DNA of 36,107 nt from a virus. Positions 2,812-34,784 of the stretch are shown here, one piece after another; position 1 is the stretch's first letter, and every line of letters starts with the position of its first letter. Both the position numbers and the translations under genes were made by a program. Where the stretch lies: the IMG/VR virus record IMGVR_UViG_3300025502_000077. One strand, given 5' to 3'. The notes beneath the pieces were generated by a model, which saw nothing but the letters and a program-made list of their open reading frames with translations, was not told the origin of the DNA and did no database searches.

Positions 2812-2979
2812 ATGGTCGAAACAACAAAGGAAGTACTTGACGTAGCCGCAGCTTCTACCGCTGTACTTTCAATGGCTGCTTGGTTACCGCCAGCAGCTTC
2901 CATACTTACAATACTTTGGCTTGGTATTAGGATATATGAGTCAGATACTGTACAAAGTATACTAGGGCGTACAAAATGA
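2812..2979 (+). CDS. Small membrane protein (55 aa), holin/antiholin-like; not in the supplied ORF track
   Basis: Translated by hand: MVETTKEVLDVAAASTAVLSMAAWLPPAASILTILWLGIRIYESDTVQSILGRTK. AGGGA RBS. Its stop overlaps the next start (ATGA at 2976-2979). A hydrophobic core is followed by a charged tail. Confidence 0.45.
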   Translation: MVETTKEVLDVAAASTAVLSMAAWLPPAASILTILWLGIRIYESDTVQSILGRTK

Positions 2980-3353: not shown

Positions 3354-3355
3354 GA

Positions 3356-7396: not shown

Positions 7397-7398
7397 TA

Positions 7399-8046: not shown

Positions 8047-9590
8047 TGGCTGAGCAACTACAGAATATTACAATTGCAGCTCCAGGCTTCTTGGGTATAA
8101 ACACTCAAGACTCGCCTATTGGACTAGATCCTGCATATGCTTCTATTGCTGACAACTGTGTTATTGATCAGTTAGGTCGCGTAGGTGCTCGTCAGGGCTA
8201 CACAAAGATCACTACTAACGGTGGAGATGTCTTAGGCACTAGCAGAGGTATTGAGAGCGTATTTGAGTTTATCAGTGTAACTAACATAACTACTGTGTTC
8301 TCTGCAGGCAACAACAAGATCTTTACAGGCTCAACTACTTTAACAGAAGTGACACTGCCTGCTGGTTATACGATCAGCGACAACAACTGGAAGATTGTAT
8401 CTTTTAACAACGATGTTTACTTCTTCCAAAAAGGTCACGCACCTTTAGAGAGTGTTGGAGGGTCAACAACGCTTACGCTTTTAACAACTTCCGGTGGTAA
8501 TCAACCTCCACAAGGTAACGATGTACTTGCTGCTTATGGACGCCTGTGGTCGTGTGACGTTGTTAACAACAAGTACACAGTGTATTGGAGTTCGTTGCTT
8601 GCTGGCGATGATTGGCATGGTGGGTCTTCAGGTAGTATTAACTTAACTACAGTGTGGCCTAACGGGTACGATGAAGTGGTAGCTCTTGCTGAACACAACA
8701 ACTTCTTGCTAGTGTTCGGTAAAAGAAATGTATTAATCTTTACAGGTGCTCAGAGTCCTTCTTCAGACTTAACCTTACACGACACAGTTGAAGGTACAGG
8801 TTGTATAGCAAGAGATTCTATACAAAGTACAGGAACGGACTTGCTTTTTCTTTCTAATCGTGGTATAATGTCCCTAGGAAGGATAGTCCAGGAGAAGTCT
8901 CTACCTCTACGTGACGTAAGCATGAATGTCCGTAGTGACCTGCTGGCTGCTGTAGAAGAAGAAGCACACGCTAATGGTCATAGAGAAGAGATTAAATCTA
9001 TCTATAGCCCTGTCCATGCTTTCTACTTGCTGACGTTACCGTCCAGTAATATTGTTTATTGCTTTGATGTACGTCAGCCTTTAGAGAATGGATCGTTTCG
9101 TGTCACTACCTGGACAGCGTTAGAGCCTGTTGCGTTTACTGTGTTTGCTGATGACTCTTTGTACATGGGACGCAATGAAGGCATCATACGCTACGGTAGC
9201 TATCTTGACGACACGGCTAAATATCAGCTTCGTTACTTTAGTAACCCTAACGATTTCCAGAGTCCAGCTAACTTGAAGTTCTTGAAGAAGTTTAACTTGA
9301 CTATTATTGGAGGTCAAAGCACAGAGACTGTCTTAAACTGGGGTTATGATTACACAGAAAGCTACACAAAGCAAGCATTTATTTTTGGCAGCGGTGTACC
9401 TGCTGAGTACGGTATAGCAGAGTATAACACTACTGGCGAATACACAGGATCTGTTGTGGTTAACACACCTAAAGTAAACGCTTCAGGAAACGGTAATGTG
9501 CTGACAATAGGCATTGAAGCTCAAATTAACAACTCACCTTTTTCAATACAGAAAATTGACATACACGCTCTAGTAGGGAGAATGCTCTAA
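8046..9590 (+). CDS. Putative tail tubular protein B / nozzle-like protein (514 aa)
   Basis: The start is taken at the ATG overlapping the upstream stop (TAATG) rather than the track start at 8031. The N-terminus ...APGFLGINTQDSPIGLDP...N...D..GRVGARQG resembles the conserved N-terminal motif of gp12-type proteins. The body is beta-rich. Confidence 0.45.
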   Translation: MAEQLQNITIAAPGFLGINTQDSPIGLDPAYASIADNCVIDQLGRVGARQGYTKITTNGGDVLGTSRGIESVFEFISVTNITTVFSAGNNKIFTGSTTLTEVTLPAGYTISDNNWKIVSFNNDVYFFQKGHAPLESVGGSTTLTLLTTSGGNQPPQGNDVLAAYGRLWSCDVVNNKYTVYWSSLLAGDDWHGGSSGSINLTTVWPNGYDEVVALAEHNNFLLVFGKRNVLIFTGAQSPSSDLTLHDTVEGTGCIARDSIQSTGTDLLFLSNRGIMSLGRIVQEKSLPLRDVSMNVRSDLLAAVEEEAHANGHREEIKSIYSPVHAFYLLTLPSSNIVYCFDVRQPLENGSFRVTTWTALEPVAFTVFADDSLYMGRNEGIIRYGSYLDDTAKYQLRYFSNPNDFQSPANLKFLKKFNLTIIGGQSTETVLNWGYDYTESYTKQAFIFGSGVPAEYGIAEYNTTGEYTGSVVVNTPKVNASGNGNVLTIGIEAQINNSPFSIQKIDIHALVGRML

Positions 9591-9823
9591 TGTCCGATTA
9601 TACGAAAACCACTAACTTCGCAACTAAGGACTCTTTAGCTTCTGGCAACCCTGCTAAGATTGTGAAGGGTACTGAAATTAACACTGAGTTTAACAACATA
9701 CAGACCGCTGTTAACTCTAAAGCTAACTCAGCTAGTCCTACAATAACAGGAACAATGACTGCCGCTACTGTCAACGTAACTGGCACATTGACTGCTGACA
9801 CAATTACTGGAGGATCCTACTAA
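9590..9823 (+). CDS. 77-aa protein consisting only of a tail-fibre N-terminal (tail-attachment) type domain
   Basis: DYTKTTNFATKDSLASGNPAKIVKGTEINTEFNNIQTAVNSKA is the motif common at the N-termini of podovirus fibres. The protein ends ...TITGGSY. Confidence 0.55.
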   Translation: MSDYTKTTNFATKDSLASGNPAKIVKGTEINTEFNNIQTAVNSKANSASPTITGTMTAATVNVTGTLTADTITGGSY

Positions 9824-10782
9824 TGTCTTTATTTACAGGTAATAATATTTCAGACATGCTTGGAGCTGGTGGTGCTTATTACCTAGGCAATCAAGCTTCT
9901 GATATTGCTAGAGAAGGTGGCGATGTAGCGAGAAACTTAGCAAATGAAGCAGCTACTACTTCAAGAGCAGAGTCAGCTTTTCAGCCATACACTGTAACAA
10001 GCAACTTGGCTAACATAGGTACAACTGCTCAAGGTGGTTACAACCTCAACCTTTCACCTCAACAGCAACAGCTTCAAAACCAGCTTCTAGGGCAATCTCA
10101 GCAGTTGTTTGGACAGGTGGGTCAAGACCCCGCAGCTCGCGCACAAGGCATCTACGAGCAGATTAGGGCTACTCAGCAGCCTGGTGAAGAGAGAGACCGC
10201 TTAAAGATGCAAGAGAACTTGTTTGCAGGTGGTCGTGGTGGTATACAGACTGCACAGTATGGTGGTTCTCCAGAGCAGTTTGCTTATGAGCAGGCTAGAG
10301 CAGAGTCACAGAACACTGCTGCATTAGGCGCACGAGAGCGTGTGTTAGCAGAAGAAGCTCAAGCGTTGACCTCAGCTCAAGGTTTGATGGCTTCTGGTTA
10401 CAACCCACAACAGCAAGCTCTATCGCTTCTGGAAGGTAGTCAAATACCTGCTGGTTATGCTTCTGCTGGTCAACGCACAGGCGCTGAGCTAAGCAGTCAG
10501 TTACGTGGTAGAGGAATTGAGTCTTACGTACAAGGACAGGACTTAGGTAACAGAATTGATCTACAGACTCAAGACGCTATCTTAGGTCTATTGACGGGTC
10601 AGCAGATGTCTCCGCTGCAGCAAGCGCAGATAGCTGAGATCTATGCAGGTATGGGTCAAGAAGCGCCAGGTGGCGGTGGTCTTATTGGTAAAGGTTTTGA
10701 TTGGTTATTTGGAGGCAACGGCAACAGCGAGTATGGCAACATTGGCGATCCTTTTGCTGATAATTTTGGAGGTACGCAATAA
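9823..10782 (+). CDS. Gln/Gly-rich internal virion / ejection-type protein (319 aa)
   Basis: Position equivalent to T7 gp13/14; ATGA-type coupling with its neighbours; low-complexity Q/G/A composition. Confidence 0.5.
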   Translation: MSLFTGNNISDMLGAGGAYYLGNQASDIAREGGDVARNLANEAATTSRAESAFQPYTVTSNLANIGTTAQGGYNLNLSPQQQQLQNQLLGQSQQLFGQVGQDPAARAQGIYEQIRATQQPGEERDRLKMQENLFAGGRGGIQTAQYGGSPEQFAYEQARAESQNTAALGARERVLAEEAQALTSAQGLMASGYNPQQQALSLLEGSQIPAGYASAGQRTGAELSSQLRGRGIESYVQGQDLGNRIDLQTQDAILGLLTGQQMSPLQQAQIAEIYAGMGQEAPGGGGLIGKGFDWLFGGNGNSEYGNIGDPFADNFGGTQ

Positions 10783-12146
10783 TGGCTAACATAGATTACG
10801 CAGGTTTATTGACAGGCATAAGCGGTCAGAACCAACGACCAAGTCCGTTTACTTCTCCTTCAAGAGATCAACAGCTTCTAGGCTTTGCAGCTAAACAGAA
10901 CGAAGCATTGACTGGCCGCCTTGGTGGCATGTTTGGACTACAGCAGCAAGACCCTGTAGAGCTTGCTAAGACAAAGCTAGTGGGGCTAGATCCTACAAAC
11001 CCAGCAGATCAAGCACAGTTTATACAGCTGTTGAATATTGTTGATCCTGCGAAGGCTGCTCAGTTTAAACAGCAGTTGGATTCTAAAGCTACTTCGTTGA
11101 CTAAGAGTACAAATGATGCTACTACAGTGGCTGACGCATTGCCGGCACAGTACGCATCGTTAGCAAAAGCTGTTCGTAATAAAGTACCTGGCGCTCTTCA
11201 AAGAGCAGTTGAAATACTAGGAGCTGCTCCAACAAAACCAGAAGAAGACCCCGCTTTAGTTAAAGAGTATAGGTTTGCGAAAACACCTAAAGGAGGAAGT
11301 TTTGAAGGCACGTTACAAGACTGGGCAGAGCTTAAAAAAGCTAGAGGAACAGTTATAAAAACTACTCAAACTCCTGCAGAAAAAATGACAGAGAATAATT
11401 TAGAGCGTCAAGCAAAATATGTTGATATAACTGCACCTGTAGCTGCAACGGCTGTCACGGATAAGCAAGCAGCAAACGCTATACTGAATGAAGTAGAAAA
11501 AGGTTTTGACACAGGCATGGTTGCTAATTTTGTAGCTAACCAATCTAAAAATTTACAAGGTATTTTTCAACTAGCGGGCGTAGCTTATCCGGAATCTTTT
11601 TCTGAGAAAATTAAAGATCAAGCTGTTCTAAAGATTTTACAGAACGAAGCTATTATACCAATGATGGATGCGCAAGGTAAAGGATTTACAGATAAAGATT
11701 TAGAATATCAGCAGGACGTGCTACCTGGTTACACCCAGCCTTGGCAGTATAACGAAGCAGCGGCAACAATTAAGTTACATAAAGCTGTAAATCAGATTGA
11801 AGAAAACACTTTTGCTAATCAACGTGCTAACTTATCTGAAGTGACTCCATTAGACCATACTACTTTATGGGATGATTATTTAACTAAAATCCCTAGAAGT
11901 AAAATAGCAGCAGCTAAAAGAAACGGTATTGATTACAAAAGAATGGAAGTCATACAGGACAGTGCTAATCTTTCACAATACTGGGTAAAAGATAAGCCTA
12001 GAGGTTTTACCTTGTCGATCAAAGGCGAGAATAAAGATGTAACTTGGGCTGATATTAAAGACACTGCCGCAGCTAATGACATGAACATTAGAGAATTTTT
12101 AGCAGCTTATGAAAACCAAGGTTTAATTGTAAAAGGCGTTTACTAA
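10782..12146 (+). CDS. Internal virion / ejection-type protein (454 aa)
   Basis: Position equivalent to T7 gp15; translationally coupled; no catalytic motif recognised. Confidence 0.5.
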   Translation: MANIDYAGLLTGISGQNQRPSPFTSPSRDQQLLGFAAKQNEALTGRLGGMFGLQQQDPVELAKTKLVGLDPTNPADQAQFIQLLNIVDPAKAAQFKQQLDSKATSLTKSTNDATTVADALPAQYASLAKAVRNKVPGALQRAVEILGAAPTKPEEDPALVKEYRFAKTPKGGSFEGTLQDWAELKKARGTVIKTTQTPAEKMTENNLERQAKYVDITAPVAATAVTDKQAANAILNEVEKGFDTGMVANFVANQSKNLQGIFQLAGVAYPESFSEKIKDQAVLKILQNEAIIPMMDAQGKGFTDKDLEYQQDVLPGYTQPWQYNEAAATIKLHKAVNQIEENTFANQRANLSEVTPLDHTTLWDDYLTKIPRSKIAAAKRNGIDYKRMEVIQDSANLSQYWVKDKPRGFTLSIKGENKDVTWADIKDTAAANDMNIREFLAAYENQGLIVKGVY

Positions 12147-15097
12147 TGGCAATATTCGACACTTCTAACGTAATCTTTGAGTCAGGAGCTTCTAGCAATG
12201 GGGTTGTTTTTGATACAGGTATTGAGTTCCCTAACGAAGTCATTGCAAGACTAGCTGGCGAAAAAAGAATAGAAGAGCTGCAAGGAGGAGCAACACCGCC
12301 TACATCTTTTCCAGAAGTTCCTGTTCTTTCTGATCAAGGCACTAATGTTACTCCACGCCCAGAGGAAAGTTTACTACAACAAGCAGGAGAAGAGCTACGC
12401 TATCGTACAGCGCCTGTTGTAAATCCTGTAATGGAAGTGGTAGACGCTATGGTAACGCCTATTTATAGTTTTGGCTATGACATGGCTGTGCGGGTTCCTA
12501 CTTACTTAGCTACTATGGGAACTAGAAACTTAGAAAACCTAGCGGAATCTTCTAACGTAAACATAGACATGGAGTGGGAAGGCGGCTACGACATAGGAGT
12601 TCCTGATTTATTCAGAAACAAGAGTTTTGTTAATGATGCTGAAACTGAACAATTCTTAGACAAAGGCGGTTTTTACGCTTCTCTTGGTCTTGGTATTACC
12701 AGTGCTGCTCGTGCTTCAATAAACATGTTAGGCGCTGGCTTTGTCAACTACGGGAAAAGAGGAGTCGCGCTAAACCCTAAAACTGGTCAGCCTTTTGTAG
12801 GAGTAGAAGGAGCGCGGACAGGTATCACAAGGTCTCTAGCAGAGTCTTCGCTACCTACTGAAGCTAAAGTAGCGTTAGCTATGGCTGTGGCGGGAGAAGT
12901 AGCTTCTGCTGCTACTGGCTCAGACAGTGCTCTTATAGCTTTGCCTGCTGAAATTGCTGGTGGTTTTGCAGCAGCGCGTAAACCAGCTACTTATTTAGAA
13001 GCTGCTACTGGCATTATTAAGTACGCAGACACAGGTGTTGAGGTAGTAGGTAAGAAAATAATAGACGCTTTTGATGCTAAGTTTGGGGAAGACGCAGTAA
13101 CTTTAGCTAGTCAACGAATTAGAGGAGAGAGTGTCAGCCCTTTAGAAGCTAAACTAGCTTTAGAAACTGCTGACGATGCTTCTATTTTATCTGTAGCTCA
13201 ACAAACAAATGACTCAGGTATCCTCACTTTAGAAAGAGCGTTAGCTGCTGAGGACAGTGTTTTTGCAGGTTTTGTAGACGACCAAGTTGATCAAGCTCAG
13301 TACTCGTTAGCGAGAGAATTAGAAACTCTAATGAATCCAGAAAGCAGTTCTTTAGATTGGACAGCACTAAAAGACTTCTTGCCTAAGATACAAAACGACT
13401 TGATAGCTCAAGTAGACGACAGAGTTATGATTGAGACAGAGAAGCTTACTAAGCTTTTAAAAGTTTACGATGGCGATGTCACTAAAATGTCCAAAGAGTT
13501 TGAGGAATCTTTTAATAAAATATACGCAGATGTTAAACAACAAGAAAACAACCTCTGGCAGCCTATAAACGACTCTGTAAAGATACCGACTAAACCTTTA
13601 GTAGACGCTGTTGAAACAATTGTCGCTAACTCCAGCTCACAAGCAGTGCTTCCTGCCGAGGAGTTTGCTAACATTCTAGGAAAAGGTGTTGCACGTACAG
13701 GTAAAGGCTGGAAGACGTTTGAAGTTACTCCTGATAACAAGAAGCGGTTAGCTGAAGCAGGCGTAAAAGTTAAATGGCCTGACGCACCTCTACAAACTGT
13801 AGAAGCTCCTCTAGTCCTTAGAGATTTAAGAAGCAAGCTCAACTCCATGGCTAGAAGCGCAAACGCAGCGACAGACCCTACTTTTCAATATAACCAGAAA
13901 GCTCTAGGGGAAGCTCAGCAAGCTGCTTTAGACAATATAACACTAGGTGTTGAAAGTGTTAATCCACAGCTTCGTGAGTACTATTTAGCGGCTACTGCTT
14001 TCTCTAAAAAAATACACGACACTTTCACTAGAGGAACTTTTGTACCCAAAGCTAAGAAGGCGGTTAAAGAGAAGAAGCTAGAGACAATGGTAGGCGGTCA
14101 AACAGCCAAGCAAACTGACATGGATATTGTTGCTAGGGAGATGGAAGAAGTCTTTAATTTAGCAACGTCTGGCAGCAGCGCCGCCCAGTCTAACGCTTTA
14201 AAACAGGCTGAAGGCTTTCTTCTTGCTAAGTTCCAGGCTCAGGTAAACCCTAATAAACTAGAAGATTTCAAGGCGTTTGAAACTTCCCACTCGTCTTGGA
14301 TAGAAAGATTCCCAGCAGTAGGTGAAGCTATTAAAGCAGCAAAGAAAAAGGCGAGGTCTCAAGGGAAAGTAGTACAGAACGCTGAAACAGCAGCGGAAGT
14401 GGCGCGTTTGGACGACTTCTACGGAGTGGCTAACATGACGCCAGAGCAGGTTATGGATGTTATTCTTAAATCTTCAAGCCCTACACAAACTTCTGCCAGG
14501 TTCCGCAAGCTTTTAAGCACTAACAAAGAAGCTCTTGCTGTATTTAAAGAACAGGTTGCTAATCGTGTGGTTGCGCAATCAATGAAAATTGTTGATTCGC
14601 AAGTAGCAGGTAAAGGCAACGTAGAGCTTATTGATCCTGTTAGTTTTTCAAAAATTCTAAAAGATTTTAAGCCGTTGACTGCCGTGTTTAACACTGCTGA
14701 ACAGAAAGGTTTAGAGCTGTTGCTTAGAGATGTAAGCAGTATAAGTAAATCTCTATCTGCTAAAAGAGGATATACAAAAGTTGCACCCCCTAAAACAAGT
14801 GCTGGTCTAATACTAGCGGCTAAGTTAGCTGCTTTGAAAGGCGTTAACTTACTAGCCGGTTCTTCTTCTATTGTGTTGGCGGGCACAGCTTCTAACGCCG
14901 CAACTAAAGCAATACAAAACTTAGGAGTAGAAGCGTCTAGTAAAGTTCTAAAAGAAGCTTATAAGAACCCAGAGCTTATGAAAGTTCTCCTTAGTAAGGA
15001 TATCACAAGGAACCAGCTACAACTTTTGCAGTCAGGTAGGTTTAAAACAGGACGTATTATTTATAACGCTTTAACAGAGAAGGCAACTCAGCAGTAA
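12146..15097 (+). CDS. Large internal virion / ejection-type protein (983 aa)
   Basis: Last and largest gene of the structural operon (T7 gp16 position). It is alpha-helical and Ala-rich. No transglycosylase or RNAP motif was recognised. Confidence 0.5.
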   Translation: MAIFDTSNVIFESGASSNGVVFDTGIEFPNEVIARLAGEKRIEELQGGATPPTSFPEVPVLSDQGTNVTPRPEESLLQQAGEELRYRTAPVVNPVMEVVDAMVTPIYSFGYDMAVRVPTYLATMGTRNLENLAESSNVNIDMEWEGGYDIGVPDLFRNKSFVNDAETEQFLDKGGFYASLGLGITSAARASINMLGAGFVNYGKRGVALNPKTGQPFVGVEGARTGITRSLAESSLPTEAKVALAMAVAGEVASAATGSDSALIALPAEIAGGFAAARKPATYLEAATGIIKYADTGVEVVGKKIIDAFDAKFGEDAVTLASQRIRGESVSPLEAKLALETADDASILSVAQQTNDSGILTLERALAAEDSVFAGFVDDQVDQAQYSLARELETLMNPESSSLDWTALKDFLPKIQNDLIAQVDDRVMIETEKLTKLLKVYDGDVTKMSKEFEESFNKIYADVKQQENNLWQPINDSVKIPTKPLVDAVETIVANSSSQAVLPAEEFANILGKGVARTGKGWKTFEVTPDNKKRLAEAGVKVKWPDAPLQTVEAPLVLRDLRSKLNSMARSANAATDPTFQYNQKALGEAQQAALDNITLGVESVNPQLREYYLAATAFSKKIHDTFTRGTFVPKAKKAVKEKKLETMVGGQTAKQTDMDIVAREMEEVFNLATSGSSAAQSNALKQAEGFLLAKFQAQVNPNKLEDFKAFETSHSSWIERFPAVGEAIKAAKKKARSQGKVVQNAETAAEVARLDDFYGVANMTPEQVMDVILKSSSPTQTSARFRKLLSTNKEALAVFKEQVANRVVAQSMKIVDSQVAGKGNVELIDPVSFSKILKDFKPLTAVFNTAEQKGLELLLRDVSSISKSLSAKRGYTKVAPPKTSAGLILAAKLAALKGVNLLAGSSSIVLAGTASNAATKAIQNLGVEASSKVLKEAYKNPELMKVLLSKDITRNQLQLLQSGRFKTGRIIYNALTEKATQQ

Positions 15098-15099
15098 TA

Positions 15100-15133
15100 A
15101 AAAAGCCCTATAGAATCTCTCTATAGGGCTTTT
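15100..15133. terminator. Bidirectional rho-independent terminator between the convergent operons
   Basis: AAAAGCCCTATAGA-ATCTC-TCTATAGGGCTTTT: a 14-bp perfect stem (including A/T ends) that gives a U-tract on both strands. It sits between the stops at 15097 (+) and 15174 (-). Confidence 0.85.
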
Positions 15134-21333: not shown

Positions 21334-21363
21334 ATTATACCACACAAACTTTAGAAAAGTCAA
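21334..21363 (-). promoter_or_regulatory. Sigma70-type promoter (middle) for the SSB-to-nrdJ block
   Basis: Minus strand: TTGACT-N18-TATAAT with TGg extended -10. The -35 overlaps the polymerase stop. It is followed by the 7-bp-arm palindrome TAGATCAcaacTGATCTA (21311-21328). Confidence 0.6.
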
Positions 21364-23003
21364 TGTGTTTCTGCCCAATTGTTACCTATGTTGAACTCAC
21401 CATCCAGAGGGCAGCGCAGATCGAAGTGCTCACCTGCTTTCTGAATAGCTTTTACTGCTACCTTGCCTACTGCCTTAGCGAAGTGCTCTGGCGTTTCCAC
21501 TTGAAATTCATCATGTACGTTAGCCACAATCTTAAAAGGTATCCCGCGAGCTGTCAAGCTGTCTGACAATATTATCAACGCTTGCTTCATTACTATAGCG
21601 CCTGCACCTTGCAGCAGTGTGTTGAGTGCTGCGTGTTGTGACCTGACTCTTAGTCGTCTGCCGTCAAGACCCTGTAGAGTGCCTGAGAGGGCCAGTCTAG
21701 CCACTTTGTCACGGAGCTTAGCCAATGCTGGCGTGTTGCGTAGAAACGCCGCCATGAGCTGCTGTCCTTCCTTGTAACCACCTTTAACAATCTCGCCTAT
21801 CTTAGCCGGCCCTGCGCCGTACAGGAAAGCGTATATAAATGTCTTCGCCTGGTTGCGGTCCGTAAGCCCTGCTGCCTTCATATTAGCAGTGTGTATGTCA
21901 CCGCTTAGGATCTCGTTGGTGTACTTGGTGTCTCGCATGTAATGTGCCAGCATACGTAGCTCTAAACCACTGGCGTCTATACCTACTAGCTTGTAACCAT
22001 GCGGTACAGTCCAGAAGGATCTACACTCTTTACCATACGGCGCTGTCACTGACGGAACTTGAGCCATGTTAGGGCTGAGATGTGTCATTCTACCTGTCAC
22101 AGCGCCATTAGTGATGACTCTACCATGCACTCTGCCGTTCTTCTCGAAGGATAACCAGGAATCTATCTGCGCTGAGCGCTTCTGCAGCATAAGATACTCG
22201 TAAATAACCTTAGCTTCTGGAATGTCAATACCTTCAAGCACTTTTTCGTTAACAATTACAGAACCTTTCTCAGTTTTCTGAGAGAATATAACACCTGCTT
22301 CTGCCAACCTCTCCGCTATCTGCTTCCGTGACCCCACATTGAACTCTGTTACCTTGTCCTTCAGCTGCTTTCCCGTCTTCTCCGACCATCTCTCTTCCAC
22401 TATCGGTGGAAACACCTTCTGCAGGTCTGTTGTTATCGTTCGCATCCTGTGAGTTATCGTTTGGTAGAGGGATGTCGCCCCACTGACGTCTAGTACGAAA
22501 CCATTTCTCTCCTGAACCGCCGTAATGATGGCGACCTTGTGCTCTAAATCTACGCATGTGTCGATGAAATCCTCTTGTTTAAGCACGTTAAGCAAATGTG
22601 TATACAGTCTAGTGGTTAAAGCTACGTCCTGCTTGCAATAATCTATCATCTCATCGGATAGACCAGCATTGTAGTCTGAAAAGTCAAGCTTTAAATCACC
22701 AAATCTCTTGCCCCAGCTATCTAAACTGTGTCCACCTTCCAGGGGAGGGTTATACAACCTGCTGAGGACTAAAGTATCTATCAACTGATTGTCTGGTAGC
22801 TGTAATCCCCACACGTTTGCAAGCACTGGGGCGTCGAATCCTATGATATTGTGACCAATTACACCTGTTGCCTCACGTAATACAGGTATAAGAGTGTCTG
22901 GAGAAGTGTGAACAAGCTGTTTGCCTGTCTTGACTTCCTCAGTTACTCCGCACCAGATCGTATCGTGGTCGGTGTTGGTCTCTAAATCTAGTGTAATCAA
23001 CAT
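21360..23003 (-). CDS. Family A DNA polymerase with 3'-5' exonuclease domain (547 aa, T7 gp5-like but compact)
   Basis: Exo motifs DLET, HNIIGFD and YCKQD. Pol motif A is DASGLELRMLAH, motif B is RNQAKTFIYAFLYGAG, and motif C is VHDEFQVE. Confidence 0.9.
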   Translation of the reverse strand: MLITLDLETNTDHDTIWCGVTEEVKTGKQLVHTSPDTLIPVLREATGVIGHNIIGFDAPVLANVWGLQLPDNQLIDTLVLSRLYNPPLEGGHSLDSWGKRFGDLKLDFSDYNAGLSDEMIDYCKQDVALTTRLYTHLLNVLKQEDFIDTCVDLEHKVAIITAVQERNGFVLDVSGATSLYQTITHRMRTITTDLQKVFPPIVEERWSEKTGKQLKDKVTEFNVGSRKQIAERLAEAGVIFSQKTEKGSVIVNEKVLEGIDIPEAKVIYEYLMLQKRSAQIDSWLSFEKNGRVHGRVITNGAVTGRMTHLSPNMAQVPSVTAPYGKECRSFWTVPHGYKLVGIDASGLELRMLAHYMRDTKYTNEILSGDIHTANMKAAGLTDRNQAKTFIYAFLYGAGPAKIGEIVKGGYKEGQQLMAAFLRNTPALAKLRDKVARLALSGTLQGLDGRRLRVRSQHAALNTLLQGAGAIVMKQALIILSDSLTARGIPFKIVANVHDEFQVETPEHFAKAVGKVAVKAIQKAGEHFDLRCPLDGEFNIGNNWAETH

Positions 23004-23098: not shown

Positions 23099-23296
23099 TT
23101 ACCTATCTTGCTCATTGTCATCCACCATTGGTTCAAAGTCTGACTCCGATTTTAAGTCTATCCTGTCAATCGTGTCAATATCTTCTGATGTGTAAGCGCA
23201 ACAACTGTTGCATAAATCCAGGAAAGTCCCAGACACTGCAGACTTACGTGTCGCTTCAAAGTCTGATAGAGCTACGTTACAGGCTAAACATCTCAC
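23099..23296 (-). CDS. Small zinc-ribbon protein (65 aa)
   Basis: CLAC...CNSCC cysteine pairs; acidic C-terminus; coupled to the primase-helicase stop. Confidence 0.55.
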   Translation of the reverse strand: MRCLACNVALSDFEATRKSAVSGTFLDLCNSCCAYTSEDIDTIDRIDLKSESDFEPMVDDNEQDR

Positions 23297-24906
23297 AAGG
23301 CTTCCTCCATAATTTCTGACATTCTACCGCTTTCTTGGTTATAGAGCAAGCCCGCTGCCCGTCCTGTAATACCTGCAAAGCGATTCTTCAGAATTCTTAC
23401 GTGGGTTGTGTTGCGTTCTATTGGGTCAGCTGCCTGGCCGTTCCTTTCAAGCCCTATCACCATGTCAGATAGCTGAGCTATAGATGCTGAGCCTCTGAGC
23501 TGTGACAGTGAACTAGCAGCACCTTCCTCGTGACCCTTGCCGTCTGGTCTCTTCAAGTGGCTCACCATAAACAGCGTGATGCCTGTCTCTTGAACTAGCA
23601 TCCTGAGCTTGGTGCAGATCTCATCCAGTGCCTTACGTTCGTCGCCGTTGCTCTGAGCTGATACAACAATAGAGACATGGTCTAGGAACAAGAACTTGGT
23701 GTCCAGCGCTTTTGCCATGTAGCGACAGCGGGCAACAATGTTATCGATACTGGTGCTTCCAAAGTGGTCAAACAAATACAAGCGGTTAGTGCCCATAGTT
23801 TTCTCGAAAGCATCCCAGCGTTCCTCCTCTGTAGTCTCTACTGTTGGTAGGTGTATAGGCTTGTTAGCTGCTAGTGACATAAGCGAAAGAGCTGTCTTAC
23901 GTGCGTTCTCTTCCAGGAACAACAAGCCAATGTTTTCTTCTGAGTTCTGCAGTATGTGCCAGACTATCTCTCTGACAAACTGAGACTTACCCAGTCCAGA
24001 ACCTGCAGTAATTGTAACTAGCTCTGCCTCTCTGATGCCGTAAGTAAGCTTGTTAACACCTGCCCAGGGATACATCACTGCAGCAGTCTCTACTGGCCTG
24101 TTCACTTCGTCCCAAAGACTAGCGCCGTTGATGATACCGTCTGGAACAAATCGCTCTGCAGCCCAGAAGGATGCTATATAGGCTCTGTCGTCGTCCTGGA
24201 GTAAGAAGTCGCAAGCGTCTTTGTACTGGCTCGGGTACTTCATCACCTTAGACTTGCCGCTGAACAGCTCAGCAACCTCTCTGGCAGCCTTAATGCCTGG
24301 CTCATCGCTGTCAAAAGAGATAACAATGGTGTCGAAGGTGTCTAGCCACTCGTAAGCGGCCTTACAGTCGCCTAGAGCGCCGCTAGAGCCGTTCTTGATA
24401 CTGACTACAGGGAACTTGCTCCCCTGCATCTGGTAGCTCGCCAGGGCGTCGAATTCGCCTTCTGTTATTGTGACAGTCTTACCACCTTTACTGAACAAGT
24501 GCTGGCCGAACAGTCCAGAATCTTCCCAGTTACCCACCTTGTAGAATCGCTTGTCGTGCTGACGGATCTTGGAAGCTATCGGCGTGTTCGCATCGTCCGG
24601 TGAATGATAGCTGAAATAGGTCTTATCTGGGTTGTGAATGACGCCATATTTCTTAGCAGTCGCCGTTGTAATACCTCTCTCAGGTATAGCGTTATAGCGT
24701 CCAGTAGTAAGTAGGTTCTCTATTGATTCGAAGCTCTGCTTAGGGCGTGGCGTTTCCTCTATGTCTGGCATTGTAATAGCGCCGCTGTTGTCGCCCTTCT
24801 GAAAGTCGCCGCAGCTAAAGCATTTCTTTGATCCGTTCTCGTTGATAGCCGCTGCGTCTGACGAGCCGCAAGCATCACAGGGTAGGTGCGTCTGAGTAAA
24901 TGCCAT
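23293..24906 (-). CDS. Bifunctional primase-helicase (T7 gp4-like, 537 aa)
   Basis: N-terminal Cys4 zinc finger (CDACGS...CFSCG), TOPRIM (TEGEFDALA, FDSDEPG), and a DnaB-type Walker A GSGLGKSQF with Walker B LFLDHV. Confidence 0.9.
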   Translation of the reverse strand: MAFTQTHLPCDACGSSDAAAINENGSKKCFSCGDFQKGDNSGAITMPDIEETPRPKQSFESIENLLTTGRYNAIPERGITTATAKKYGVIHNPDKTYFSYHSPDDANTPIASKIRQHDKRFYKVGNWEDSGLFGQHLFSKGGKTVTITEGEFDALASYQMQGSKFPVVSIKNGSSGALGDCKAAYEWLDTFDTIVISFDSDEPGIKAAREVAELFSGKSKVMKYPSQYKDACDFLLQDDDRAYIASFWAAERFVPDGIINGASLWDEVNRPVETAAVMYPWAGVNKLTYGIREAELVTITAGSGLGKSQFVREIVWHILQNSEENIGLLFLEENARKTALSLMSLAANKPIHLPTVETTEEERWDAFEKTMGTNRLYLFDHFGSTSIDNIVARCRYMAKALDTKFLFLDHVSIVVSAQSNGDERKALDEICTKLRMLVQETGITLFMVSHLKRPDGKGHEEGAASSLSQLRGSASIAQLSDMVIGLERNGQAADPIERNTTHVRILKNRFAGITGRAAGLLYNQESGRMSEIMEEAL

Positions 24907-24907: not shown

Positions 24908-25117
24908 TTAAATTTCCTCTATGTCGTATACGTAACCGTAAGAAATAATAAGGAACGGCAATAGTAGAATAAGACCGTCCATCGGCATAACCGTAGTCTC
25001 ATCTGTTTCCGTGTTGTAAACCCAAACAGGTCTAGATTCTACAGCCTCCAGGTCAAACAGGCCAACACCCATTCGGAACTCTATTGACAACAATCTATCG
25101 AATATCCACCATCTCAT
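24908..25117 (-). CDS. Hypothetical protein with a C-terminal hydrophobic segment (69 aa)
   Basis: Coupled ORF; LILLLPFLIISYGYV. Confidence 0.45.
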   Translation of the reverse strand: MRWWIFDRLLSIEFRMGVGLFDLEAVESRPVWVYNTETDETTVMPMDGLILLLPFLIISYGYVYDIEEI

Positions 25118-25311
25118 TATTTTATACCTCTGTTAAATTTATCATACTCTCGCATCTCTTTAAGAAACTGACTAAGTGCTTCAGTGTCCACCGCGTACAG
25201 TCTAGCAGCGTCTAATAAAGATAACAACCCGCCCCCAACATCATTGGCAGCTCTCAACAGCGCCATCGTGTACGGCGTCAGTGCGCCACTTGTCATATAT
25301 TGTTGAAACAT
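25117..25311 (-). CDS. Hypothetical protein (64 aa)
   Basis: ORF with a weak RBS; first gene after the 146-bp intergenic element. Confidence 0.45.
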   Translation of the reverse strand: MFQQYMTSGALTPYTMALLRAANDVGGGLLSLLDAARLYAVDTEALSQFLKEMREYDKFNRGIK

Positions 25312-25325
25312 AATTATTCGCCTGG

Positions 25326-25353
25326 TTGACAGTGTTTTTAATGTGACTATAAT
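25326..25353 (+). promoter_or_regulatory. Near-consensus sigma70 promoter pointing rightward (antisense) inside the leftward early operon
   Basis: TTGACA (25326-25331) - 16 nt - TATAAT (25348-25353), read directly. No + strand ORF follows. Confidence 0.6.
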
Positions 25354-25457
25354 AGATCTCTAGAGACCGCTAGTTATCTTTTAAAGCTCTTCAGAGGTTA
25401 ACAACAAGTAGTAGAAGCTAAAACCCTAAAAGAGCTCTAAAAGGTCTCTATAGAGCC

Positions 25458-25703
25458 TTAGAATCTTCTGCTAACGCTCTGCGCTAACTGGTCGTTTAAG
25501 TCCGCTAACATCTCTATATCATCCGCATCGGGTACAAAGTTTCTGTCACTCTCTAAAAACTTAAGATTCACCGCTAAGTCATTAGCCAGCATAAAAAAGT
25601 CTTCTCGCGCCTCTTTTGCGTATTGCTTCTGTAGTTGCTCTACCTTGTCGTTATCGTCTAGGTGTTCGTCGCCGTGTAGCCAACTATGGTCTTTACTATA
25701 CAT
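25458..25703 (-). CDS. Hypothetical acidic protein (81 aa; start trimmed)
   Basis: ATG at 25703 preceded by AGAGAGAGGT. The track start at 25757 would overlap the upstream gene. Confidence 0.5.
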   Translation of the reverse strand: MYSKDHSWLHGDEHLDDNDKVEQLQKQYAKEAREDFFMLANDLAVNLKFLESDRNFVPDADDIEMLADLNDQLAQSVSRRF

Positions 25704-25735
25704 GGTGTTACCTCTCTCTGTTGTTTGTTTGTCTA

Positions 25736-26005
25736 TTATAGCGCAATACGCAACCATTTATCAGACTCTCGCATTTCTTTATTCTCTAACCTGTTCTCTA
25801 GCTCCTCTCTGCGCCTTGCTAACGGCCCTATAATAGGCGGACCGCTCGGTCTAACGTCTCGCTCTGTGAAGTCTTTCTTGTAGCGTAGGCGGCTGTGCAG
25901 TGTTGACTTGTTGATCTCTGTTATTAGGTGAAGCGTCGGTATAGTGTAATAGGCGTTTGCAACCAGGCGCGGGTGATCTCCTATAAACTTAAAACTTTTA
26001 TTCAT
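25736..26005 (-). CDS. Small protein with a possible helix-turn-helix (89 aa; start trimmed)
   Basis: ATG at 26005 preceded by AGAGGAAA. The segment TLHLITEINKSTLHSRLRYKK looks HTH-like (weak). Confidence 0.4.
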   Translation of the reverse strand: MNKSFKFIGDHPRLVANAYYTIPTLHLITEINKSTLHSRLRYKKDFTERDVRPSGPPIIGPLARRREELENRLENKEMRESDKWLRIAL

Positions 26006-26077
26006 AATTTTTCCTCTATGACTCGATAGATGTTCATTAGTGCACCGCAAACGCTATTACGTATATCGCTGGTTGAA

Positions 26078-26242
26078 TCATGATCCCCATCTCGCCACCA
26101 TGCCCCATTGTATGGCCATTACAAGCGCCGCCACTGCTACCACTAAAGCTAGGACTAGTACAGTCTCTGCGACTATTAGTCGTAGCTGTTCGCGTCTCTG
26201 TGCCGCCTTGAATGCCTTGTTGCCTTTGTATATATGTAACAT
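26078..26242 (-). CDS. 54-aa single-TMD membrane protein; not in the supplied ORF track
   Basis: Hand translation: MLHIYKGNKAFKAAQRREQLRLIVAETVLVLALVVAVAALVMAIQWGMVARWGS. It starts 2 nt after the upstream stop. The + strand ORF 26040-26345 is its shadow. Confidence 0.45.
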   Translation of the reverse strand: MLHIYKGNKAFKAAQRREQLRLIVAETVLVLALVVAVAALVMAIQWGMVARWGS

Positions 26243-26243
26243 A

Positions 26244-26441
26244 TTATTCTACTCCCTCTATAAAGGTGTTGATTATCTGTTGGCTTTGATCTGTCACGTT
26301 GTATACGGTTACGGTCGTTATTCCATCGTCGCCCGTTGCGCTTAGCGTGTGGCCTGTCAGGGTAGCCCGCGCCCAGTACTTAGTGAACTGTTGAGCTAGT
26401 GCCCTGTTGTTGAATGTTAGCGTTGCGTCCATGTTATACAA
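26244..26441 (-). CDS. Hypothetical protein (65 aa)
   Basis: Coupled ORF in the early operon. Confidence 0.5.
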   Translation of the reverse strand: MYNMDATLTFNNRALAQQFTKYWARATLTGHTLSATGDDGITTVTVYNVTDQSQQIINTFIEGVE

Positions 26442-26724
26442 CCTCTCTTGCGTCTATGATTGACTCAATGTCGTTCTCTAAGTTGAAGCTAGTAGTCACA
26501 AAACCGCCACCGAATTCCTTACCACGGTACACCTTAAAACCTAGCTTATTAGCTCTCTGCTTTGCTATGTCGTAGTCGCCTATGCCTAGCTCATCATCAC
26601 GGAGAAAAGCGAGGTAGTGCGTAACGTAACGCGGGTTGCCGTTGCTGTCGTTGTTGACTCTATAGAAAGAATCATTGAACTGAGCTTCCAGGTCGGGGCT
26701 GATGTAACATTTTTGATTGTTCAT
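26434..26724 (-). CDS. Hypothetical early protein (96 aa)
   Basis: AGAGGT RBS; the motif NDSNGNPRYVTHY...FGGGFV looks conserved, but I cannot name the family. Confidence 0.55.
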   Translation of the reverse strand: MNNQKCYISPDLEAQFNDSFYRVNNDSNGNPRYVTHYLAFLRDDELGIGDYDIAKQRANKLGFKVYRGKEFGGGFVTTSFNLENDIESIIDAREVV

Positions 26725-26748
26725 TGTGTGACCTCTATTGTTTGGTGT

Positions 26749-26774
26749 GCCCCTTGCGGGGCGCTGATTAGTCT
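26749..26774 (-). repeat. Copy 1 of a 26-nt repeat carrying a GNRA-tetraloop hairpin (mRNA sense AGACTAATCAGC-GCCCC-GCAA-GGGGC)
   Basis: Identical 26-mer at 26953-26978; each lies upstream of the RBS of an early ORF. Confidence 0.8.
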
Positions 26775-26822
26775 ATAGTGCTGCGCGGATGTGTTCGCCA
26801 TCAATTTCTAGCTCCCAATATT

Positions 26823-26915
26823 TCATAATATACCGCCTATTGTAGTGAGTTCAAGGGTGACCAGCAGCACGCCTAAGAGCGCTACGATCCAAGTGAGTGC
26901 AAGTAATTCTTTCAT
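26823..26915 (-). CDS. Possible 30-aa hydrophobic peptide
   Basis: MKELLALTWIVALLGVLLVTLELTTIGGIL; GGAG 10 nt upstream. Very short, so uncertain. Confidence 0.3.
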   Translation of the reverse strand: MKELLALTWIVALLGVLLVTLELTTIGGIL

Positions 26916-26952
26916 GCTATTGTTCTCCTTTGTTTGTCTGTTTGTTTGCTTG

Positions 26953-26978
26953 GCCCCTTGCGGGGCGCTGATTAGTCT
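26953..26978 (-). repeat. Copy 2 of the 26-nt hairpin repeat
   Basis: Identical to 26749-26774 (offset 204 nt). Confidence 0.8.
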
Positions 26979-26993
26979 TACTGTTTCAACTGT

Positions 26994-27140
26994 TTAGTCG
27001 TAAGGATAAATTATATCCTCTTTGATAATATAGTCCGTGAGGTTGTGCTCAGATATTATCTCCATTATCTGCCCTTCAGTTGCAGCGGCACCAATGTATT
27101 GACCATTAGCTATCAGTATATAAATCGTCTGCTCTATCAT
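26994..27140 (-). CDS. First early ORF (48 aa), hypothetical; not in the supplied ORF track
   Basis: MIEQTIYILIANGQYIGAAATEGQIMEIISEHNLTDYIIKEDIIYPYD; AGGAG 7 nt upstream of the ATG at 27140. Confidence 0.45.
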   Translation of the reverse strand: MIEQTIYILIANGQYIGAAATEGQIMEIISEHNLTDYIIKEDIIYPYD

Positions 27141-27205
27141 TTTGTTAGCTCCTGCACCGTTTTGGTGCGTTTATTTGTTTATGTCTTTCACTTCTTGATG
27201 GTTCC

Positions 27206-27233
27206 ACTATATAGAATGCAAGCAGGCAGTCAA
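27206..27233 (-). promoter_or_regulatory. Leftward early promoter candidate (sigma70)
   Basis: Minus strand: TTGACT-N16-TATAGT, about 65 nt upstream of the first early ORF. Confidence 0.55.
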
Positions 27234-27262
27234 GTATTTATATATACCGTAATAGCATAAGC

Positions 27263-27292
27263 ATATAACCATTAGGACACACCAGGTGTCAA
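27263..27292 (-). promoter_or_regulatory. Second leftward promoter candidate (perfect -35, weak -10)
   Basis: Minus strand: TTGACA-N18-TTATAT. Confidence 0.35.
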
Positions 27293-27402
27293 TAGCCTAC
27301 AGTGCTAACGATCCAGGTCTTCATAAGCTGCAGTGATATAGGTGGGGGTGCTGGGTGGTCTGTATAGTACCACTATAGACTCTCACTCCTCACTCTACAG
27401 CC

Positions 27403-27422
27403 TGTGGATAACCTGTGGATAA
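27403..27422. promoter_or_regulatory. Two tandem perfect DnaA boxes (TGTGGATAA = complement of TTATCCACA), 11-bp phasing
   Basis: CCTGTGGATAACCTGTGGATAAC read directly. A degenerate third box TGTTGATTA lies at 27564-27572. Confidence 0.75.
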
Positions 27423-27691
27423 CTATAGAGGTGGGTGTTCTTTAGAGGCCGGGGAGGGTCTGGGGTGTGCGGAGATTGTTACTGTACCCGCCTAGATACA
27501 AAAAAGGGTCAAATTAGAACAATAATAACAAGGCAGTAGACAGTCTGTGTAGTCCTTGTAAGCTGTTGATTACTATAGAGAATAAGGGCGGGGCTGCGGA
27601 GTCTCTAGGGCTGCTGAGATCCGCTGATGAAGGGACGGGGATGTATGTAACAGCCCTATGTAATTTATTTACTCTATATAGTAATCTCTGC

Positions 27692-27720
27692 TTGACTTTT
27701 GCTCTAAAATATGCTATAAT
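27692..27720 (+). promoter_or_regulatory. Rightward (late/structural) sigma70 promoter
   Basis: TTGACT (27692-27697) - 17 nt - TATAAT (27715-27720) with TGc extended -10. Confidence 0.7.
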
Positions 27721-27722
27721 AG

Positions 27723-27734
27723 ACTCTATAGAGT
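27723..27734. promoter_or_regulatory. 12-bp perfect palindrome ACTCTATAGAGT at the predicted transcription start (operator candidate)
   Basis: Lies 2 nt after the -10. The related CTCTATAGAG is at 25446-25455 and TCTCTAGAGA at 25357-25366. Confidence 0.5.
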
Positions 27735-27883
27735 TAAGTAAGAGACCTTTTAAAGACTTGATAGAGACCCTAAAAGAATAACTACTTTCAACTTCCAGTA
27801 GTTGTTCTCGTAGAAACCCTAAAAGACATTAAAAGATCTCTTGTTTAACTAAACAGAACTTTATAGACTATAGAGGCAATTCT

Positions 27884-28264
27884 GTGTCTGAGAACAAAAG
27901 AGTAGGCAGGCCCTCAAAGAAGGATGTTTCATCTGTTAAGAAAGGTAACAGGAATTCTGTTGGTAGACCCAAAGGGGATGCTGCTACAATCAATGAGTAC
28001 AAAGCACGTATGCTTGCATCTCCTAAGAGTAGGAAGGTGTTAGACAGTATCCTCAATGCAGCTCTTGATGACGATCACAAGAACCAGGCAGCAGCATGGA
28101 AGTTGTGTATGGATCGTTTGTTACCTGTTAGCTATTTCGAGAAGGATAAGGCTGGAGGAGGCAGAGGCGCTATCAACATATCTATTACTGGTGTTGGTGG
28201 TGAGACTACTGTTATCTCAGGCGGTGAAGAAGACATAGAAGAGGGTAACTATTCAGATGTATGA
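27884..28264 (+). CDS. Putative small terminase / DNA-binding protein (126 aa, GTG start)
   Basis: Basic N-terminus with two GRP(S/K)K motifs, then ...AAWKLCMDRLLP, resembling DUF5681/TerS-like proteins. It lies upstream of TerL. AGAGG RBS. Confidence 0.45.
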   Translation: MSENKRVGRPSKKDVSSVKKGNRNSVGRPKGDAATINEYKARMLASPKSRKVLDSILNAALDDDHKNQAAAWKLCMDRLLPVSYFEKDKAGGGRGAINISITGVGGETTVISGGEEDIEEGNYSDV

Positions 28265-32388: not shown

Positions 32389-32417
32389 TTGACTTTTAAG
32401 TGAAAGTGTGCTATAAT
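32389..32417 (+). promoter_or_regulatory. Internal sigma70 promoter upstream of the scaffold/capsid genes
   Basis: TTGACT (32389-32394) - 17 nt - TATAAT (32412-32417) with TGc extended -10. It shares CTTGACTTTT...TGCTATAATA with the 27692 promoter. Confidence 0.7.
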
Positions 32418-34747: not shown

Positions 34748-34784
34748 GGGGATTCTTCGGAGTCCCCTTTCTTTTCTTTTGTTT
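34748..34784 (+). terminator. Rho-independent terminator after the capsid gene (UUCG tetraloop)
   Basis: GGGGATTC-TTCG-GAGTCCCC (8 bp, one G-U pair), followed by TTTCTTTTCTTTTGTTT. Confidence 0.85.

Follow-up and report, generated by a model that had tools for sequence, protein, structure and literature searches.

What does the long, repeat-rich leader ahead of the late operon do in a T7-like phage that appears to rely on its host for transcription? We addressed this question for IMG/VR record IMGVR_UViG_3300025502_000077, a 36,107-nucleotide stretch of DNA (hereafter the window) from an uncultured, podovirus-like phage of 36 kb whose replisome is of T7 type. Its late promoter and leader (element B, positions 27,692 to 27,883) precede the packaging genes, and a similar promoter and repeat array (element A, near 25.3 kb) lies antisense among the early genes. 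A sequence-only reading had proposed that A and B are paralogous structured RNA elements, acting in cis in antitermination or regulator binding by the logic of lambda nutL/nutR and HK022 putL/putR. Our analysis bears out the paralogy. As to function, we favor another reading, tentatively and with well less than full confidence: the cassette of promoter and array may be a transcription-coupled DNA element of the T7-origin type, either an origin or a DNA-processing site, which at B is also the late promoter and 5' untranslated region (UTR).

The T7-type replisome is recognizable from PHROG matches to T7-type primase-helicase and polymerase (E = 1e-175 and 1e-139), and no phage RNA polymerase was found in any large open reading frame (ORF) of the window. 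T7-like phages without an RNA polymerase of their own must rely on the host polymerase alone for timing and for the initiation of replication, and a cassette of promoter and repeats that is conserved and used twice offers the most obvious way into how such phages manage. Megablast and distant blastn searches of the region against cultured phages found no close relative, only a 30-nt promoter match; the family has no cultured relative.

Elements A and B are genuine paralogues. The sequences downstream of the two promoters were aligned locally and compared with 2000 dinucleotide shuffles and 875 other genomic windows. The alignment scored 36, a value reached by 3 of the 2000 shuffles (18.8 ± 3.0), and no other window scored above 27. 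ACCCTAAAAGA occurs exactly three times in the genome, always inside A or B, and CTATAGAG gives nine matches where 2.2 are expected, clustering at 27370–27880 and in A. All of the motifs listed earlier for the two elements were found on reading the sequence (Table 1), as was the pairing of 27740–27753 with 27829–27842 in 13 of 14 positions. It also proved correct that each element directly follows a very strong promoter: in a promoter scan of 17–36 kb, A (12/12) and B (11/12 plus the TG of an extended −10) are the two best plus-strand sites. Transcription from promoter B is predicted to start at ~27727–27728. The direct units of the B array follow the pattern AGA(G/A)ACC(C/T)T(A/T)(A/T)AAAGA (27740–27756, 27763–27778 and 27812–27827), and at 68% AT the array is in the top 1% of 120-nt windows (genomes, 55%).

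The cassette extends well beyond the window. Using the primase and the first late protein, we fetched 160 loci (designated L with a number) and recovered 54 distinct B-type leaders from IMG/VR. All 54 have TTGAC(T/A), a 17-nt spacer, (TG)nTATAAT, a TATAG-type palindrome at the putative start site and a leader of 150–290 nt ahead of the same gene. Both elements occur in close as well as distant relatives, and neither of the outcomes named earlier as refuting the proposal, similarity no better than that of shuffles or absence from relatives, was obtained. The tail of the leader (27843–27883) is the most conserved block in the alignment of the window-clade leaders (A4). The middle is lineage-specific; in every case it is crowded with copies, often 10 nt apart, of a single short motif, nearly palindromic and of the type C-T(n)A(n)-G, such as CCCTAAAAG, CTTTAAAG or CTTAAG-N4-CTTAAG. 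The window lineage uses CTTTTAAAG/CCCTAAAAG, and L008 carries this motif inverted, as three copies of CCTTTTAGGG. L114 and L122 have six to seven copies of GCTTTAAAG and differ from each other by one 10-nt unit, L142 has about eight units of a 17-nt repeat, and the largest lineage has CTTAAG-N4-CTTAAG twice. Copies vary in number from 2 to about 10, in units of ~10 nt, flip orientation and form direct repeats on both arms. L001 and L003, which are 94% identical to the window, differ from it by a 10-nt indel and lack the second ACCCTAAAAGA (the 27814–27826 copy). In the CTTAAG clade, sites fall at 66, 76 and 86 and again at 127, 137 and 147, a 10-nt phasing, and the density of CTTAAG is 23.8 per kb in the leader versus 0.27 per kb elsewhere. 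Some sublineages have further copies upstream of the −35, at −25, −61 and −120 (2.1 per kb).

Second copies evolve together with the late leader. A blastn-short self-search was too insensitive to detect them, and they were found by inspecting intergenic gaps in longer contigs. In L166 and L167, from the CTTAAG lineage, a second cassette occupies the gap beside the primase-proximal genes, on the strand opposite to that of A in the window. It comprises TTGACA, 17 nt, TATAAT, an array of CTTTAAAG, CTTAAAG and CTTAAG-TATA, then AGAGGCAGT and the ATG with which the primase/PolA operon opens. The second cassette of L166 scores 52 against its own B leader and at most 24 against the leaders of other genomes, and both L166 cassettes are 72% AT versus 55% for the genomes. 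In 20 kb of L166/L167 there are no more than three strong promoters, namely B, the second cassette and an equivalent, without an array, of the second late promoter at 32389. Weaker second copies are present in L044, L015 and L168. The order of promoter and array and the lineage-specific motif are thus kept, and the orientation relative to the genes is not. That the second copy and the late leader have their repeats in common would fit a trans-acting factor, or a mechanism, that serves both, and the cassette is a twice-used, concertedly evolving feature of the whole family.

Because the phage has a T7-type replisome, we compared the window with T7. The primary origin of T7 consists of phi1.1A and phi1.1B and then CCTTAAGGTTTAACTTTAAGACCCTTAAGTGTTAATTAGAGATTTAAATTAAAGAATTACTAAGAGAGGACTTTAAGTATG, ~80 bp at 72% AT (T7, 52%), built of CTTAAG, CTTTAAG and TTTAAATTAAAG; it opens the block of replication genes and also forms the leader of gene 1.1. 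The cassette resembles it in having a promoter followed by an AT-rich motif region that doubles as an mRNA leader, alongside the same type of replisome. Unlike the T7 origin, it has a host sigma-70 consensus promoter, since the phage lacks its own RNA polymerase, and its arrays are longer, dyad-symmetric and lineage-specific. T7 origins have a promoter as their essential part, and once RNase H is removed, phiOR is sufficient as the origin of a plasmid (PMC8373140). The phiOL leader contains GAGAGACAACTTAAAGAGACTTAAAAGATTAAT, to be compared with GAGACCCTAAAAGAAT and AGACATTAAAAGATCTC of the window, and boxes similar to the TATAG boxes of the window occur in the phiOR leader as ACTATATAGAT and CTTATAGAGT. 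An AT-rich region follows the promoter in T7 origins, as is visible in the sequence. When the B leader of L166 was slid along the whole T7 genome, the best match was the primary-origin window at 5901 (score 35, z ~6), and for the second cassette of L166 (module 2) it was the phiOL leader (score 33, z ~6.5). In the reverse search, the T7 origin and the phiOL leader picked exactly the L166/L167 cassettes from 20 kb, so that the matches are reciprocal best.

On the reading that we tentatively favor, a near-consensus sigma-70 promoter would fire into a 100–250-bp AT-rich C-T(n)A(n)-G array with overall dyad symmetry, and the cassette would correspond, in a phage that is T7-like but lacks its own RNA polymerase, to the promoter-then-AT-rich modules of T7 (phi1.1A/B; phiOL/phiOR). 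Host RNA polymerase would transcribe into the easily melted array, and the RNA–DNA hybrid and the displaced strand, which the dyad would allow to fold back, would give the gp4-like primase-helicase and PolA entry for replication or concatemer processing. Copy B would double as promoter and 5' UTR of the packaging and head operon, as the T7 primary origin does for gene 1.1. Copy A would be a second site at the boundary of the early and replication genes, inverted in the window lineage, where its transcript would run antisense to the early genes. The orientation of the second copy, antisense in the window lineage and sense in L166/L167, is what one would expect of an element that requires transcription into it and works through no particular mRNA. 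We infer R-loop priming and origin activity, as we do the transcription start sites.

Several points weigh against this reading. The window's own A and B do not rise above background when compared with the T7 origin regions, and element A is 62% AT. The link to T7 is made through the cassettes of relatives and through short AT-rich motifs, and it could reflect convergence or shared leader conventions. Invariant palindromes and lineage-specific repeats common to both copies point to a factor that reads sequence, beyond AT-richness. GC skew is uninformative because gene orientation switches at the same place, and B is certainly also an mRNA leader, which leaves room for a role at the RNA level. 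The idea of a genome terminus at the leader found no support: in the 1 kb ahead of the first late gene, contig ends lie anywhere from 26 to 952 nt away with no pile-up, and assemblies run through. If the T7 parallel is real, the AT-rich regions of T7 origins and the terminal short repeats of T7 would join a wider and older class of elements.

A related pattern is visible within T7 itself (L173, NC_001604), where the loose motif C-T(1-4)A(2-4)-G, on either strand, clusters only at 176–333, 5930–5999 and 39622–39712. These clusters are SRL, the AT-rich region of the primary origin and SRR, and the motif thereby links three features of T7 that tend to be treated apart. Both SRL and SRR consist of CCTAAAG, CCTAAGG and CATAAAG repeats; unlike the arrays of the window, they are mostly direct heptamer repeats outside transcription units, beside the physical genome ends. 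A literature search on the function of the CCTAAAG repeats returned nothing usable, and to our knowledge the function of SRL/SRR in T7 is unsettled.

The leader might instead act as a structured 5' UTR, with a hairpin that stabilizes the late mRNA, is cut by RNase III or tunes translation of the GTG-initiated gene; A would then be a hairpin of the minus-strand early mRNA or a small antisense RNA. We consider this rather unlikely. RNase III cutting has precedents in the intergenic R sites of T7 and in the lambda N leader. The T7 sites (R0.3, R0.5) are paralogous imperfect hairpins in intergenic parts of host-polymerase transcripts, and element A is similarly a hairpin between early genes. Unlike the T7 sites, the elements here have no demonstrable conserved site features and no covariation or wobble signature. 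In support of a folded leader, B forms a single long hairpin (−46 kcal/mol, z = −5.5, with none of 200 shuffles as good), most window-clade leaders have z of −2 to −6, and the arrays lie mainly inside the transcribed leader. The reverse complement of B folds equally well. The earlier claim that both elements are structured holds for B, on either strand, but not for A as plus-strand RNA, which folds no better than shuffles (z = −0.7; reverse complement, −2.3). The core of A is more stable on the minus strand, that of the early mRNA, in 7/7 variants, although this advantage may reflect the A-rich plus strand. Its inner inverted repeat is complementary through four sequences (CTTTTAAAGCTC/GAGCTCTAAAAG, CTTTTAGGGT/ACCCTAAAAG, GTTTTACC/GGTAAAAC and CCTTTTAA/TTAAAAGG). 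This persistence could reflect a real hairpin, in RNA or in displaced single-stranded DNA, or homogenization of a quasi-palindrome, and correction of quasi-palindromes by template switching can mimic covariation. In the window lineage, moreover, A has no gene to regulate.

Comparisons among relatives argue further against a conserved RNA fold. In the CTTAAG clade, for which a reliable alignment of 16 sequences of near-equal length was available, RNAalifold found no long helix but only two invariant 6-4-6 units, with a covariation term of +0.07 and no compensatory pairs. These two CTTAAG-N4-CTTAAG units are invariant in 16/16, and the intervening sequence drifts without compensation. The divergent window-clade leaders, aligned with MAFFT, likewise gave no consensus helix and no compensatory pairs, which is weak evidence given that the middle of that alignment is unreliable. 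The compensatory changes that were to be sought in relatives are therefore absent from both sets of B leaders. In the most populous sublineage, TATA has changed to TATC in both units, which would create two mismatches if the arms paired but leaves the sites identical, and its sense strand folds with z of only ~−0.5. Over 55 leaders, mean z is −2.0 for the plus strand and −2.5 for the minus strand; the comparison of strands by folding energy does not discriminate, being confounded by the A-rich plus strand, and palindromic motifs fold whatever their function. A dyad alignment of 24 representative elements contained 46 G·T, 63 A·C and 210 other non-Watson–Crick pairs, with no enrichment of G-U wobble on either strand. 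Rfam searches gave no hits over the whole window at the gathering threshold and none at E ≤ 1 over 25300–27900. Together, the invariance of the CTTAAG units, the uncompensated drift, the lack of a wobble signature and the copies upstream of the promoter favor conserved DNA-level sequence sites over a conserved RNA fold. The regulator-binding part of the earlier proposal may hold, more likely at the level of DNA than of RNA.

Sites of this kind would also be expected if the array were an operator, that is, a set of DNA binding sites for a phage or host protein that sets the timing or output of both promoters or marks the DNA for packaging. We regard this as a real but minority possibility. Several features already described fit it: the invariance of the CTTAAG-N4-CTTAAG units, two copies ~70 bp apart with a free spacer; the 10-nt phasing; the TATA-to-TATC change in both direct copies, which breaks RNA pairing and keeps the sites identical; the flipped motif orientation between the window and L008; the extra CTTAAG copies upstream of the −35, at 2.1 against a background of 0.27 per kb; the palindrome centered on the predicted start site; and the lineage-specific motifs common to both copies (score 52 versus ≤24 in L166). 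The leading candidate for a reader is the 126-aa product of the first late gene, whose two invariant AT-hook-like GRP motifs could read AT cores one helical turn apart; the arm with both GRP motifs is kept in all lineages and differs only subtly between them. Those subtle differences weigh on the other side, as does a conserved core that shows no co-variation with motif type. The TATAG box also occurs at the same promoter in the unrelated phage Slicky01 and may therefore be part of the promoter context.

The identity of the 126-aa protein is positional only. Its gene lies in the place of T7 gp18, in an order of small terminase, lysis gene and large terminase, and is followed by an M15 peptidase-like gene and then the large terminase. 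In a terminase recognition (pac) site, the binding sites would be repeated within the small-terminase gene or beside it. Array B sits directly upstream of a gene in small-terminase position, albeit one with no terminase-family match, and the second array is 2.3 kb away. Searches of Pfam, PHROG, NCBIfam and PDB sequences found no match for the protein, hhalign against T7 gp18 was negative, and an AlphaFold2 model (mean predicted local distance difference test score 47) is unusable. Outside its variable basic arm, the protein is 82–99% conserved across lineages, versus 56–77% for the primase. It is a candidate small terminase or regulator.

The same basic arm would be needed by one form of the antitermination proposal. 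Processive antitermination could take the form of a put-like leader RNA, of N/nut-like hairpins bound by a basic peptide (perhaps the arginine/lysine-rich arm of the 126-aa protein) or of a Q/qut-like pause, and would carry transcription through the terminator at 34748 into 16 kb of tail genes. The layout has some likeness to lambda: two paralogous elements stand just downstream of strong promoters, as nutL/nutR and putL/putR do, and the first gene behind B encodes a small basic protein, much as N follows PL-nutL. The terminator at 34748 is real, and since no strong plus-strand promoter was found between it and the end of the late operon at 15100, read-through is needed there. The second late promoter has no element, so that only transcripts from promoter B would be modified, and most B leaders have a −10-like hexamer (TATAGA, TATAGT or TATAAT) after the −10, though L166 module 2 has none; the Slicky01 promoter has the same context. 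The specific features of nut or put sites that were sought are missing. For boxA (YGCTCTTTA-like, ≤1 mismatch) there was no match in 25354–25470 or 27721–27883, and the genome-wide count was 33 against 28 ± 5.8 expected. No boxB-like hairpin of fixed sequence or shape was seen, only small inverted repeats, CTTAAG-N3-4-CTTAAG, with a free loop and in 2–4 copies, from which the window motifs differ. A put-type pair of stem-loops should leave covariation, and two B alignments gave no compensatory pair and no long consensus helix. Neither leader contains an intrinsic terminator, and after B no plus-strand terminator comes before the one at 34748, at a distance of about 7 kb; of the promoters, the second late promoter, which has no element, is closest to this terminator. 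The motifs vary in number and orientation, and the second copy, antisense in one lineage, stands at the head of an operon in another. No N- or Q-family antiterminator matched among the ORFs scanned, which covered part of the small ORFs, and the basic arm shows no clear co-variation with the repeat motifs. Phages commonly have leaky terminators behind their capsid genes. Together with the lack of an Rfam match, these observations lead us away from an antitermination RNA with nut/put logic, which we now regard as the least probable account of the cassette.

Element A could also have a function of its own, as an antisense shut-off device. Its promoter would produce a 1.8-kb transcript over the seven earliest genes, ending at the terminator-like site at 27153–27169, which would stop antisense transcripts from promoter A, and the resemblance to B would merely mark a duplicated promoter cassette. 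Consistent with this, no plausible plus-strand ORF was found downstream, and the perfect promoter is kept (in L001–L007 and L010; the −10 of L008 is TAAAAT) even though element A, promoter included, is only ~71% identical among sublineages. Element A fills the gap between the early genes 25117–25311(−) and 25458–25757(−) and lies at a mosaic junction: the neighboring 99-aa protein is 56–65% identical (L001–L003, L005) and the 64-aa neighbor 94–95%. The ACCCTAAAAGA copy in A is not conserved in L004, L005 and L162. Against a shut-off function, the second cassette of the CTTAAG lineage faces in the opposite direction, driving the genes for replication, the hairpin at 27153 is absent from L001, and retention of the array and its concerted evolution with B would go unexplained. 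We think it very unlikely. The readings considered here are not all mutually exclusive.

The so-called PeSL cassettes of T4-type phages, which reportedly combine an early promoter with stem-loop repeats at module boundaries, offer a further comparison. They are similar in that a sigma-70 promoter with a stem-loop cassette is repeated within the genome, at a mosaic junction between swapped genes. Unlike the cassette described here, with its two copies and a long array after the promoter, PeSLs are many-copy, and the stem-loop (terminator) comes before the promoter. From nut and put sites the cassette differs in turn by the lack of a boxA, of a fixed boxB- or put-like structure and of nearby terminators, and by the variable number and orientation of its motifs.

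A more ambitious proposal, to which we attach a distinctly low probability, combines several of these elements. The two cassettes would be the paired sites of a co-evolving system that a phage factor reads. The system would be either a host-polymerase-dependent class of origin, ancestral or parallel to the promoter-type origins of T7, or a system like N/nut, where nascent transcripts of both promoters would carry repeated mini-hairpins, bound by the basic GRP arm of the 126-aa protein so as to license transcription of the middle and late genes. If the origin version were true, it would suggest a function for the long-unexplained CCTAAAG-type SRL/SRR repeats of T7. In addition, the cassette would provide a compact strong-promoter and leader part for marine gamma-proteobacteria.

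Table 1. Coordinates of the two elements and of associated features in the window
Feature	Position	Strand	Description
Promoter A	25326–25353	+	TTGACA (25326–25331), 16-nt spacer, TATAAT (25348–25353); 12/12; points against the early genes
Element A	25355–25458	+	Palindromes at both ends, TCTCTAGAGACC / GGTCTCTATAGAG; inner inverted repeat CTTTTAAAGCTC / GAGCTCTAAAAG; also AGTAGTAG apex and one ACCCTAAAAGA copy
Motif in A, TCTCTAGAGA	25357–25366		
Motif in A, CTTTTAAAG	25378–25386		
Motif in A, AAACCCTAAAAGA	25421–25433		
Motif in A, TAAAAGGTCTCT	25438–25449		
Motif in A, CTCTATAGAG	25446–25455		
Terminator-like hairpin	27153–27169	+	With T-run; inside 5' UTR of first early gene; absent from L001
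Promoter B	27692–27720	+	TTGACT (27692–27697), 17-nt spacer, TGcTATAAT (extended −10; −10 at 27715–27720); score 11/12
TATAG box	27723–27734	.	12-bp perfect palindrome ACTCTATAGAGT, centered on predicted start site
Repeat array of B	27740–27842	+	Dyad-symmetric, AT-rich; three direct units, one inverted partner (27829–27842)
Motif in B, AAGAGACCTTTTAA	27740–27753		Read from sequence
Motif in B, GACCCTAAAAGA	27766–27777		Read from sequence
Apical hairpin of B	27778–27808		ACTACT 27781–27786, AGTAGT 27797–27802
Motif in B, AAACCCTAAAAGA	27814–27826		B copy
Motif in B, TTAAAAGATCTCTT	27829–27842		Pairs with 27740–27753; one C·A mismatch
Leader tail	27843–27883	+	Conserved 3' tail TATAGACTATAGAGG; Shine-Dalgarno AGAGG, then GTG start at 27884
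First late gene	27884–28264	+	126 aa; GTG start; basic N-terminal arm with two invariant GRP motifs, acidic tail
Second late promoter	32389–32417	+	Strong; upstream of scaffold and capsid genes; short leader without repeat array; equivalents in L166, L168
Intrinsic terminator	34748–34777	+	After major capsid gene; GGGGATTCTTCGGAGTCCCC and T-run; hairpin 34748–34767
Early and replication genes	~27150 down to 15174	−	Small ORFs, primase-helicase, PolA, exonuclease, HNH endonuclease, ribonucleotide reductase
T7 gp4-like primase-helicase	23293–24906	−	
PolA	21360–23003	−	
Packaging, head and tail genes	27884 to window end, then 1 to 15097	+	

Other sequences near element B deserve mention. Between the early and late promoters, which are divergent, the spacer contains perfect DnaA boxes, TGTGGATAA (complement of TTATCCACA): two in tandem in the window (27403–27422), three in L166 (9560–9640) and five in L167 (9500–9610). 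They adjoin a G-rich block and a conserved ACAAAAAAGGGT(C/G)AAATTAG, ~300 bp upstream of B, and the spacer may be a DnaA-dependent origin or a regulatory hub in a phage with its own T7-type replisome. We count this conserved cluster of boxes in favor of the T7-origin reading of the cassette. A 22-nt direct repeat of 86% identity, TAAsCTGTkGATwACTATAGAG (27409–27430 and 27559–27580), ends in ACTATAGAG; we rejected these ACTATAGAG repeats as SP6/T7-type phage promoters in view of the lack of a polymerase gene in any large ORF. An integration host factor (IHF) consensus and an oriC 13-mer-like match (GATCTCTTGTTTA, 27834–27846) are single matches at chance level and were also set aside. A reading of the CTACT/AGTAG apex as a Cas12a-like repeat (an RNA anti-CRISPR) was dropped, since its only basis was a vague resemblance.

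The early and late gene blocks are convergent, and a 33-nt near-perfect palindrome between A and T runs (AAAAGCCCTATAGAATCTCTCTATAGGGCTTTT, 15101–15133) separates them as a bidirectional intrinsic terminator. Among the early genes, a 96-aa protein (26434–26724, minus strand) matches Pfam Phage_TreK, the terminal-repeat-encoded protein of Staphylococcus phages (E = 7e-16), a family usually encoded near the leading end of the phage genome. A 37-nt direct repeat of 92% identity (26738–26774 and 26942–26978), which contains the GC hairpin GCCCCTTGCGGGGC, adjoins on the upstream side, on the minus strand, the ribosome-binding sites of two small early genes; it may serve the early operon as a 5' UTR element or processing site present in two copies. 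A further strong promoter on the minus strand (21334–21363; TTGACT, 18 nt, TGgTATAAT) is followed, in the stretch down to ~21290, by a small hairpin, AGATCAGTTGTGATCT. This distinct conserved leader precedes a 132-aa gene and the exonuclease, and its layout is nearly identical in L015, L017, L034, L041 and L044, whose primases are only 73–77% identical.

Finally, some indications bear on the host. The first late protein has 6145 metagenome homologues, on contigs of up to ~36.7 kb, and the family, uncultured and very abundant in marine metagenomes, probably infects marine gamma-proteobacteria. The 65-kb Pseudoalteromonas phage Slicky01 (L171, OQ508958, 49132–49161) carries the B promoter, its spacer and ATATAG (TTGACTTTTGCTTAAAAATATGCTATAATATATAGG) at two places. 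This match suggests a shared strong promoter of host type, and it hints at an Alteromonadales-like host for the phage of the window.

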